From contig CAWGBN010000008.1 in the NCBI GenBank assembly GCA_963820825.1, positions 384,001-448,000 of the forward strand: 64,000 nt of DNA, written 5' to 3'. Position numbers and translations under genes: made by a program. Under the pieces are notes generated by a model. That model was given only the letters and a program-made list of their open reading frames with translations, ran no database searches and was not told the origin of the DNA. The DNA is from Vulcanimicrobiota bacterium (GTDB taxonomy: Bacteria > Vulcanimicrobiota > Vulcanimicrobiia > Vulcanimicrobiales > Vulcanimicrobiaceae). Positions 23,930-25,993 of this stretch are shown here, in pieces. Position 1 is the first letter of the stretch. Each line of letters begins with the position of its first letter.

Positions 23930-24029
23930 TCGCGCAGTCGAGGAATAATTCAATGGTGAGCGTTGGATCGATGCAGCCAGTTAAGCTATCCCCTGCGCCC
24001 GCGAGGCCGCATCGCGCTAGGCGCTTAGC

Positions 24030-24130
24030 GTAGCCTCGCAGCTACGCAGCCCGGCGCGGATCGCGTAGCGCTTAAACGCCTCGCATCACAGATGCTTAGC
24101 CTCGCAGCTACCTCGCAGTCTCGCAGCGTA
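24030..24130. repeat. Cluster of short CTCGCA(G) direct repeats
   Basis: AGCCTCGCAGCTAC at about 24032 and 24098, further CTCGCA copies at about 24080, 24112 and 24120; inverted copy CTGCGAGGCT at 25481-25490. Confidence 0.5.
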
Positions 24131-24279
24131 GATATCAGCAGCGATGTGGCTCAGCGCCGGGGGAGGGGCGCACAATTTTGAGGCCCTGACTCTTATCCCG
24201 TGCCGCAGCTTTGTGGGCATAGGGGAACGACCCAAAAACCAGGCCCCCTCTCCACGATCGCTTGGACCCTGGCTCGCAT

Positions 24280-25134
24280 CTAACAACGCAGTCGATCGGC
24301 AAAGCGGCGAAGCAGTGGATTGTACCGCATCGCTGAGATCGCTGGAAAATAGAGCGCGGTCCGTAGGCTGGCATTGCCGGTCTTGGCGATGCGGCTCGGC
24401 CAGCGAATCGACCAGGACTCGTGATGGCGGGGAGAAAGACCGGCATACGCGGCGACGGCCTTGACGTTGCGAAACTCTGCAATGTTGGGCATCTCACCCA
24501 AGATACGAGCTGCGGTCGTCTCGCCGATTCCCGGAATCGACGTCAGCAGCTCGCGCTGTCGGCGCAGTGGCGGATAGCGGTCGAAGAGTTGTTGGATTTC
24601 ATGCTCAACCCGGTCGATTTCACGATCCAGATGAGCTAGCGTCGCTTCAATCGACGCCTGAACGACCGAGGCGATCATGGGCGCTTGGAGCCGATTCTGC
24701 TCCTCCGTCCGCATCTGGACCAGGCTCTGATACCGACGAACTAAGCCTTGTAGGGCACGGATTTCCGGCGCGGGCGGCGTCCACGGGTCTGGCGCGTGCG
24801 TGCGACAAAACCGCGCAATGAGTGCTGCGTCGATGCGGTCAGTTTTTGTCCGCAGCATCTCGCTCTTAGCAAATGCTTTGATGCGCATAGGATTAACCAG
24901 GCTGACGACATGGCCAATCTCGTGTAGTGCGAGCGCCAGATCCTCGCTCCACCCGCCAGTGGCCTCAAGACACGCGTGCACCCTGTCAACTTTGCGATTG
25001 CACAACCAGGTCTGCAACTGCTTGAAACCGACTGCCGAATTGGCGACGCTCTTGGATGTTGAGCGATCATCCTGCAGCAAAACCGCGTGCATCTCGTGCT
25101 TTCCGACGTCGATGCCTAAGATCTCCACGCTCAC
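24280..25134 (-). pseudogene. IS110 transposase/recombinase, C-terminally truncated
   Basis: LGIDVGK, LEATG, KTDRIDA, SIPGIG, YAGLSP..ES; ends at FADRLRC* before the usual GK...RKL tail. Confidence 0.9.
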
Positions 25135-25144
25135 CTCACTCGCC

Positions 25145-25335
25145 GGCAGGCTACCCTACGCGATCACCCTGATGCATAAAGGCTTCGCGACGTACGCGGC
25201 CTAAGATACGCTCCGATCTCTTAGGATAGCAGTCATCGGGTCGGCCATCGATCTTATTTCCGGGCTCGAAGCCCAAGGCATTTCAGGATGTGCCGACCCG
25301 CCCTTTCGGGTTTAAGGGACCGTTCAACGTGGCCC
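25145..25335 (-). ncRNA. Predicted IS110 bridge RNA (target-binding and donor-binding loops)
   Basis: Stem GGGTCGGC/GCCGACCC encloses guides GAAATGCCT and TAAG around the GGCT-TCG-AGCC hairpin; second loop has AGCGTATCT and ATCAG; IS621-like layout; ends approximate. Confidence 0.75.
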
Positions 25336-25993
25336 GCTAAAGAACATATCAGGCTTTTTCTCGAATCCGCCGATCGCCGGTCCTAACGCGGCGCCTCGTG
25401 CAAACTTTGCACCACCGTTTGCAAATCGCGCGGCCGTCGAAAACGCCTTATGGGATAAGGTTTTTTAGCCTATGCTGCGACTGCGAGGCTCATCATGATT
25501 CATCTGATCATAAACCCTAGGGAATATGATGCGCACTAGGCTGCCAGTTTCACGGTACGTAAATTTCATAGTAGCTAAAATCTGGACGTATTCGGTAGCG
25601 CCCCTTGGCAAGAATGACAGGGTAATCGGTGTCGTCGATATCTAGAGAGAGGCTATTTAACTTCGACTTGCGCAAAAAGGTGGTGTCGCGATATCGATAA
25701 AGGGATAGTCCGGCGCTACATGTATCAAAGTAAACTGCCGGCGAGGTCCGCTAACGAATCTAAACGGCCGCTTCGTCCGCTGCGCGCCAATGGAATCAAG
25801 AACGCCGCCGTAGCCCGCAAGCATCGCAGCGGCAGCGGGGTTGAGCACATCGTCACCACCAACGACTGTGGCAGCAATGCCGCTTATAGCCGCGGCGACA
25901 GCCGCAAGCGTTTTCAGTAGCGTTGAATTATCCAACGGCCACTATTTCGAAGTGACCTCCACTAAAGCCCGCACAGACTGCGGTTTCGGGGCC

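Follow-up and report, generated by a model that had tools for sequence, protein, structure and literature searches.

Guides of a very probable bridge RNA can be read from a decayed IS621-like insertion sequence in a Vulcanimicrobiota genome

Can the guides of a bridge RNA be read from the remains of an insertion sequence (IS), and does such a reading agree with what the related copies show? The question is raised by a broken recombinase gene and the non-coding DNA upstream of it in a stretch of 64,000 nucleotides (nt) from a Vulcanimicrobiota bacterium (contig CAWGBN010000008.1), hereafter the window. All coordinates are window positions, and all features of the element are on the minus strand. 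An earlier interpretation made from the letters of the window (hereafter, the sequence-only reading) had described a bridge RNA laid out like that of IS621, and this layout, with two loops, four guides and a location in the left end, was recovered in our analysis. We consider it very likely that 24287-25352 is a decayed insertion sequence of the IS110 group, IS621-like, with a bridge RNA whose guides are readable from the sequence.

To what kind of element the broken gene belongs was judged from its protein.

24280..25134, minus strand: 3'-truncated IS110-family recombinase gene, 284 amino acids (aa) (Pfam, structure-sequence alignments, lengths of relatives)

The protein contains the Pfam domains PF01548 (RuvC-like DEDD domain, 2.2e-29) and PF02371 (Tnp domain, 1.5e-24), and its residues 4-283 were aligned to the recombinases of IS621 (8wt6, E 3.5e-64) and ISCro4 (9t56, E 1.3e-63). 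The DEDD residues are present (D9, E57, D99 and D102, equivalent to D11, E60, D102 and D105 of IS621, with a PDB chain offset of 2), and so is the catalytic serine (S240, equivalent to S241 of IS621). Beside this serine the window protein has a tryptophan at the position of IS621 G242, where 10 of 10 intact relatives have a glycine, the window being unique among the 11 aligned proteins. In IS621, G242 hydrogen-bonds D102 and keeps the serine loop in place, according to excerpts of the structural account (PMC11208158). The recombinase is not full-length, as the sequence-only reading had noted: it has 284 aa, compared with 319-321 aa in the relatives, and the homology to the family stops at about 24287. 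The final 37 codons are missing from the window copy, as are the 17-nt right end and the target's right half.

Relatives were collected in two scans. Fourteen loci came from species-representative genomes, almost always metagenome-assembled genomes (MAGs) of Eremiobacterota/Vulcanimicrobiota, and 10 of the 14 have an uninterrupted open reading frame (ORF) of 319-321 aa. In the metagenome scan a relative was encoded in 140 stretches, and the best 80 of the 140 were used. The recombinase identity across the relatives is 55-95%. Two of the loci are peculiar in themselves. One of them (L033, on a contig labelled uncultured Acidimicrobiaceae) has a left end, a complete bridge RNA (227 bits) and the initial 65 codons of the gene, which are 95% identical to those of the window; as the MAG is assigned to a different phylum, this would reflect either horizontal transfer or a binning error. 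In the other (L027), ORF residues of about 81-107 form a 27-residue stretch foreign to the family, with normal sequence on both sides and an otherwise intact length, which looks like a pair of compensating frameshifts.

Does the non-coding left end fold as a bridge RNA would? The predicted RNA is encoded at 25352-25145, directly upstream of the recombinase gene. A consensus fold was obtained with RNAalifold from 10 close copies, and six pairs drawn between the two donor guides were removed before model building. The fold has four parts, namely a 5' stem-loop, a small hairpin, a target-loop module (with a stem of 12-13 base pairs, a large internal loop and a distal hairpin) and a donor-loop module of the same design.

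25314..25339, minus strand: 5' stem-loop 1 (RNAalifold; helices 1-2 with compensatory changes at all 9 pairs)
25301..25310, minus strand: small hairpin CCC-GAAA-GGG (RNAalifold and covariation, helix 3)
25237..25300, minus strand: target-binding loop module with outer stem, internal loop and distal hairpin (helices 4-6)
25150..25230, minus strand: donor-binding loop module with outer stems, internal loop and distal hairpin (helices 7-11)

A covariance-model search, which had been proposed as a check along with the original description, was run on 98 sources: the window, the other copy in its genome (L002) and 96 further loci (of the 107 numbered L020-L126; the 11 omitted were duplicate places or lacked upstream DNA). 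It returned 94 matches, almost all of them directly upstream of a recombinase gene. In the resulting alignment, 44 of the 55 stem pairs have compensatory changes, and the structure is thereby established for the family at the level of sequence comparison. The single-sequence fold of the window was mildly better than those of its shuffles (z = -2.13), and its minimum-energy form, which pairs the left end with the donor loop, is unsupported by the family and was rejected. The structural support therefore comes from covariation in the relatives; the window alone cannot decide. The window RNA has private mismatches at three stem pairs, among them U-U and A-C in its 5' stem-loop 1.

Where does the element begin and end? 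In the intact copies (10 aligned), homology starts at CT|GATATG, with unrelated flanks upstream. They finish with ...TTGACA-N9-ACCGTATCT, beyond which the flanks differ again. The window element starts with CTGATATG. For this and all guide comparisons we used the 84 of the 94 model rows that have a complete 5' start and both loops.

25351..25352, minus strand: CT core dinucleotide, left boundary of the IS (homology among the copies starts here; 73 of the 84 rows begin with CT)

At the right end the core is CT in 56 of 56 loci. The left end is long, about 218 nt up to the start codon, and the right end is short, lying 17 nt past the stop codon in 42 of 56 loci.

Some relatives depart from this pattern. 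The guide-matched right end is 103-159 nt past the stop codon, not 17, in L055, L057, L060, L061, L086, L087, L068 and L104, so some sub-lineages appear to have a longer right end. In L115, L112, L080, L064, L075 and L041, AA replaces CT before GATATG, and about 140 nt are conserved upstream, including a second GATATGTT about 55 nt upstream; the left end of this sub-lineage seems to be extended or duplicated, with the true boundary further left. In L093 (about 900-935), a left flank of ...ACCGTATCC, resembling the right end of the same family, precedes CTGATATG, which suggests an insertion beside or into another copy, or a tandem arrangement.

If the two loops carry guides, one should follow the ends of the element and the other its surroundings. 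Over the 84 rows, loop 1 (target) is hypervariable and loop 2 (donor) is nearly constant (ACCGTATC.. and ..ATCAG). The excerpted text of Durrant et al. 2024 (PMC11208160) likewise reports, for the relatives of IS621, target loops that vary and donor loops that are conserved. The features of the donor loop are as follows.

25204..25212, minus strand: left donor guide AGCGUAUCU (DNA AGCGTATCT), with a private C-to-G change at the second position (row comparison)
25169..25177, minus strand: right donor guide AU-(GC)-AUCAG (AUCAG pairs with the left-end CTGAT; NAT-N(2-3)-ATCAG is conserved)
25167..25168, minus strand: GG after the right donor guide (first G complementary to target position 7, C25353; handshake-guide-like)

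The left donor guide reads ACCGTATCT in 33 of the 84 rows and AGCGTATCT in a single row, that of the window, where one of the 9 bases departs from the family right end. For the 60 loci whose ORF has 300 aa or more, the region near the stop codon was compared with the opening 8 nt of the left donor guide; an exact copy was found in 55, one locus matched at 7/8, and four had no good site. The donor-guide variants ACGGTATC, ACCGCATC, ACAGAATC and ACGGAATC are accompanied by the same variants in the right end. In the window, AUCAG of the right donor guide matches the left-end CTGAT at 5/5 positions, and AU may, by skipping 2 nt, pair with the AT that comes next. Discontiguous pairing of the right donor guide is known in IS621, as given in parts of PMC11208160.

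In 62 of 69 rows the base that follows the right donor guide can form a Watson-Crick pair with the final base of the flank. These include eight rows in which this following base is not G (T:A 6, A:T 1, C:G 1), and 0 of 10,000 permutations reach 62 of 69. This position is that of the donor-loop handshake guide in IS621 (PMC11208158, in the sections drawn on here).

The target loop has its own pair of guides, and its 3' side ends with AGATC or AGATT in 75 of the 84 rows.

25276..25284, minus strand: left target guide GAAAUGCCU (7 nt plus CT; DNA GAAATGCCT), 7/9 match to the flank
25253..25259, minus strand: right target guide AAAUAAG, 7 nt, reverse complement CTTATTT (per-position flank matches, empty sites)
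25251..25252, minus strand: AU after the right target guide, at the position of the IS621 target-loop handshake guide (role suggested by analogy with the account excerpted from PMC11208158)

The left target guide was taken as the 9 nt before the distal stem of loop 1 and compared with the left flank in 62 unique pairs, obtained from 69 rows with a CT core and at least 7 nt of flank. The mean match was 4.63/7 for cognate pairs and 2.33/7 for non-cognate pairs. The reverse complement of the right target guide was compared with the right flank in 41 unique pairs from 51, three rows being dropped because the guide did not start with the core; here the match was 4.46/6 for cognate and 1.76/6 for non-cognate pairs. 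For either target guide, 0 of 10,000 permutations reached the observed match, a count whose significance is discussed below, and the outcome was unchanged when the ten model-seed sequences, or the single row taken from an unpublished genome (L038 from G051), were excluded. After the core, the right flank matched in 41, 38, 32, 32 and 33 of the 41 pairs at positions 1-5 and in 7 of 41 at position 6, indicating that the right target guide consists of the core plus five, that is 7 nt and not 4.

What do these guides say of the window itself? Its target guides predict GAAATGC-CT-TATTT, and its left flank is AAAAAGC-CT (AAAAAGCCT, 25359..25351), a 7/9 match with the core included. For the second copy in the genome the comparison is AAAACGC against AAAAAGC, 8/9.

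With both loops read, the individual proposals of the sequence-only reading can be judged. Its guide strings are all where it had placed them (GAAATGCCT at 25284..25276, TAAG at 25256..25253, AGCGTATCT at 25212..25204 and ATCAG at 25173..25169), as are the flank with its CT at 25352..25351 and its 7/9 match. The left end begins with CTGAT, as the donor guide had been taken to predict, and the copies share this start while their flanks diverge upstream of it. Two proposals needed amendment. TAAG was right in position and too short, the guide being AAATAAG by the flank matches at each position; a right end of ...AGCGTATCT had been derived from the donor guide, and the family end itself is ACCGTATCT, one base off. 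Ends or targets of intact copies that do not match the guides had been named as the evidence that would tell against the whole proposal, and in the intact copies both the ends and both flanks were found to track the guides.

Six of 85 related loci have two tandem target-loop modules with different guides (L057 115-290; L060 76-255; L061 917-1096; L086 164-337; L093 856-1034; L095 912-1093). After the left end come a stem-loop and loop a; a degenerate copy of the start of the left end follows, with a stem-loop and loop b, and the donor loop is last. It is loop a that fits the left flank found in these loci (e.g. at 9/9 in L057 and L060/L061). Between L060 and L061 the RNA and the left flank are almost identical and the right flanks differ, one fitting the right guide of loop b and the other that of loop a. 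A double target-binding loop was not found in the literature, which was covered by string search only.

Into what did the element insert? The DNA on its two sides was compared with related genomes.

25353..25470, minus strand: left flank, the left part of a host repeat, with the left target AAAAAGC at 25359..25353 directly before the core (empty sites in related genomes)
25440..25466, minus strand: second target-like hairpin AAAAAACCTTATCCCATAAGGCGTTTT, within the left flank
23930..24286, minus strand: right part of the host repeat, which a deletion has brought next to the broken IS (colinear blastn to empty-site copies)

Of 201 genomes of the family, 18 have the left-flank stretch without the IS; they include 5 of the 7 genomes of the same genus, and no bridge-RNA match was found in any of these 7. 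At the position of the IS the empty sites read, for example, GAGAAACC-CT-TATTTTACAGGCTTTTT, and the five bases after CT are TATTT in 8 of 10, as the right target guide of the window predicts. Most of the empty sites fold into a hairpin flanked by A/T (-2.3 to -12.5 kcal/mol), with a consensus of about GAAAAnCC-CT-TATTTTACAGGCTTTTT. Placed on this consensus, the IS lies where the left arm of the hairpin meets the loop. On the other side, the right part of the repeat matches the empty site in L144 at 84% over 83 nt, 85% over 39 nt and 89% over 27 nt (blastn). Beyond about 24287 the window continues colinearly with the right part of the repeat, and so a single deletion has taken out the 37 codons and the right end, along with the target's right half.

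The host repeat is a multi-copy, intergenic sequence of several hundred nt, found in this genus and family (in the window at 25353-25480 and 23930-24286; five copies in G113; also seen in L127, L128, L130-L134 and L144). It has two A/T-flanked hairpins about 100 nt apart with a conserved TTTGCAAAC...GCAAAGTTTGCAC between them, and a tail with many CTGCGAG-like short repeats. The repeat had no Rfam hit in the window.

Could the element in the window still be expressed and move? A putative promoter of the family is split between the two ends.

25343..25348, minus strand: TATGTT, a -10-like hexamer (nt 5-10 of the left end in 59 of 84 rows)

TTGACA is found 21 nt before the right end in 39 of 56 loci, and TTGACN in 52 of 56. 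Across joined ends, the spacer between TTGACA and TATGTT is 17 nt by counting. Because the halves sit in opposite ends, only a circle could bring this promoter together, and its -35 half is gone from the window copy; a search of 25000-25600 gave no sigma-70-like promoter. Together with the truncation, the replacement of glycine by tryptophan beside the catalytic serine, the private change in the donor guide and the private mismatches in the stems, this means that the window copy is, as judged from its sequence, dead. It is properly annotated as a pseudogene with a remnant of a non-coding RNA, and for the host genome it is an ordinary dead insertion sequence in an intergenic repeat.

The rest of the host assembly (2.98 Mb, 85% complete) contains one other partial copy, at C8:39768-40422, which is 87% identical. 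This second copy (L002) is cut about 345 nt into its ORF, where the ORF of another element then starts. No intact cognate recombinase gene was found in the 85%-complete assembly: the six matches are two fragments and four proteins of about 29% identity. At three places (C2:344265-344600, C5:232951-233286 and C6:622816-623151), the distant IS110-family protein has equal scores (29% identical) and a 429-aa open frame, and these places probably represent a live, different IS110/IS1111-type element. Next to the second copy (L002 2155-2640, corresponding to C8 from about 40422 on), an ORF beginning MRKRRYTEAQIV is followed by AT-richer, foreign-looking DNA; the ORF resembles what we take to be the first ORF of an IS3-family element.

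How the intact relatives would work can be sketched by analogy. The non-coding left end (25352-25145 in the window) would encode the bridge RNA, with the target guides in loop 1 and the donor guides in loop 2. Intact copies may be excised as a circle, on which the joined ends would build the TTGACA-17 nt-TATGTT promoter driving both the RNA and the recombinase. One RNA loop would recognise the junction of the ends (...ACCGTAT-CT-GATATG...) by base pairing, the other a target that reads NNNNNNN-CT-NNNNN, and the DEDD/Ser recombinase would exchange strands at the CT core. The window copy itself inserted at AAAAAGC-CT in the left arm of a hairpin of the host intergenic repeat and later suffered the deletion. 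For the transposition chemistry, the function of the promoter and the expression of the RNA, this sketch draws on the biochemistry of IS621.

Several observations weigh against reading the locus in this way, or limit how far its support carries. Standard pairs fill 92.1% of the cells of the RNA alignment, compared with 82.3% after shuffling and 23-41% with the partners slid by 1-3 columns, and the first percentage is inflated, as the alignment was fitted to the model's own structure. No Rfam 15 model matched the whole window at the gathering score or 24900-25600 at E up to 10 (Rfam may hold no bridge-RNA model), and without such a match an independent curated model is absent. Eleven of the 84 rows begin without CT, of which six share conserved upstream sequence and four carry an extra upstream module. 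Nine of the 62 left-guide pairs match at no more than 2/7. The related copies from metagenomes are not all independent insertions, so the permutation counts overstate the significance; the match between guides and flanks still spans dozens of distinct guide/flank combinations. In the window, the left guide matches its own flank at only 5/7 outside the core, and as 5.5% of non-cognate guide/flank pairs reach at least 5/7, this match alone is moderately unusual. Because the right flank and the right end are deleted, two of the four guide predictions have no counterpart in the window copy. The host is an uncultured MAG, a search of sequencing runs gave no RNA run that contains the stretch, and that the RNA is made we infer from IS621 biochemistry.

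Other explanations were weighed against the same evidence. The orphan bridge RNAs of both dead copies in the genome might still be made and guide in trans an intact recombinase, encoded elsewhere, in the unassembled 15% of the genome or on an incoming element, to the hairpins of the host repeat, and dead copies would then still influence where live ones land. Such a role would fit the left end and near-intact RNA kept by both copies (238 and 241 bits, within the 233-251 of close intact copies), the loss of the 3' part of the gene by a separate event in each, and the action in trans of the IS621 bridge RNA as reported in the available part of PMC11208160. We nevertheless give it little credence, as the assembly has no intact cognate recombinase, the private mismatches in three stems and in the donor guide are what neutral decay would give, and the genome assembly has no site within one mismatch of the 14-nt target predicted for either copy. 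A dead remnant, as described above, remains our preferred reading.

The folded leader, which lies between the left end and the start codon and whose 3' end is 10-15 nt from the ribosome-binding region, might instead be a cis-acting regulator of the transposase mRNA, with the guide-flank matches a by-product of the target preference of the protein. We see next to no chance of this: the loop nucleotides change with the flanks over dozens of targets while the proteins are 55-95% identical, variants of the donor loop change with the right end, and the homologous RNA of IS621 was required, and with the recombinase sufficient, in vitro (PMC11208160, in the excerpts used). The boundary itself could also be questioned, for the two genome copies are alike for about 110 nt upstream of the core (aligned from 25453 downwards), and this stretch occurs at only these two places in the genome; the true left end might then be about 110 nt further upstream and the decoded donor guide a coincidence. 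Ten other copies have unrelated flanks up to CT|GATATG, the upstream stretch occurs in related genomes without the IS and with an uninterrupted ...CC-CT-TATTTT... site, and the sequence past the broken 3' end continues the same repeat. On these grounds the longer left end was rejected, its probability being close to nil. A decayed element that starts at the CT core and carries a bridge RNA accounts for the relations of the guides to the flanks and ends documented in the relatives, and for the damage seen in the window copy.

The four guides of a bridge RNA could thus be read from raw sequence, and the reading holds under the comparative test. The analysis adds a family close to IS621 from Eremiobacterota and from soil or peat metagenomes, which may already be among the thousands of predicted orthologs in the IS110 papers. 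Its natural 7-nt right target guide and dozens of natural target loops form a ready data set on the tolerance between guide and target.

By these features the element belongs to the IS621-like kind of bridge recombinase, known since 2024. The likeness to IS621 of E. coli, taken from the excerpts of PMC11208160 and PMC11208158, includes a homologous protein with DEDD and Ser, a left end that is long and encodes the RNA, and a right end that is short. It extends to two internal loops, in each of which the 5' guide has 9 nt, the 3' guide is shorter and the CT core belongs to both; of the two loops, that for the target varies and that for the donor is conserved. The split right donor guide and the nucleotides at the handshake positions are shared as well, as are what would be promoter boxes, -35 in the right end and -10 in the left. 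The two differ in the right target guide, which is naturally 7 nt here and 4 nt in IS621 (longer ones are noted in some orthologs in the same excerpts), and in the host phylum, as the present family is found in Eremiobacterota MAGs, with the window copy truncated and mutated. The target also differs, being an A/T-flanked hairpin of a host intergenic repeat here and the repetitive extragenic palindromic (REP) sequence of E. coli for IS621, as excerpted.

ISCro4 (PDB 9t56) is equally close by sequence: the E-value given above for the window protein compares with 3e-75 for the intact relative L026, in a comparison made by protein alignment alone. ISPpu10 and ISPpu9 of Pseudomonas putida insert into conserved intergenic or REP stem-loop sequences, according to the parts of 10.64898/2026.03.19.712850 and PMC12288879 that we draw on, and the hairpin target here is similar. 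Elements of the IS1111 group share the recombinase family and are RNA-guided; in them the right end is the long one and the left end the short one, and the subterminal inverted repeats are longer (PMC11208160, as excerpted). The element described here is unlike them: with the RNA in a left end of about 210 nt and a right end of 17 nt, it has the layout of the IS110 group.

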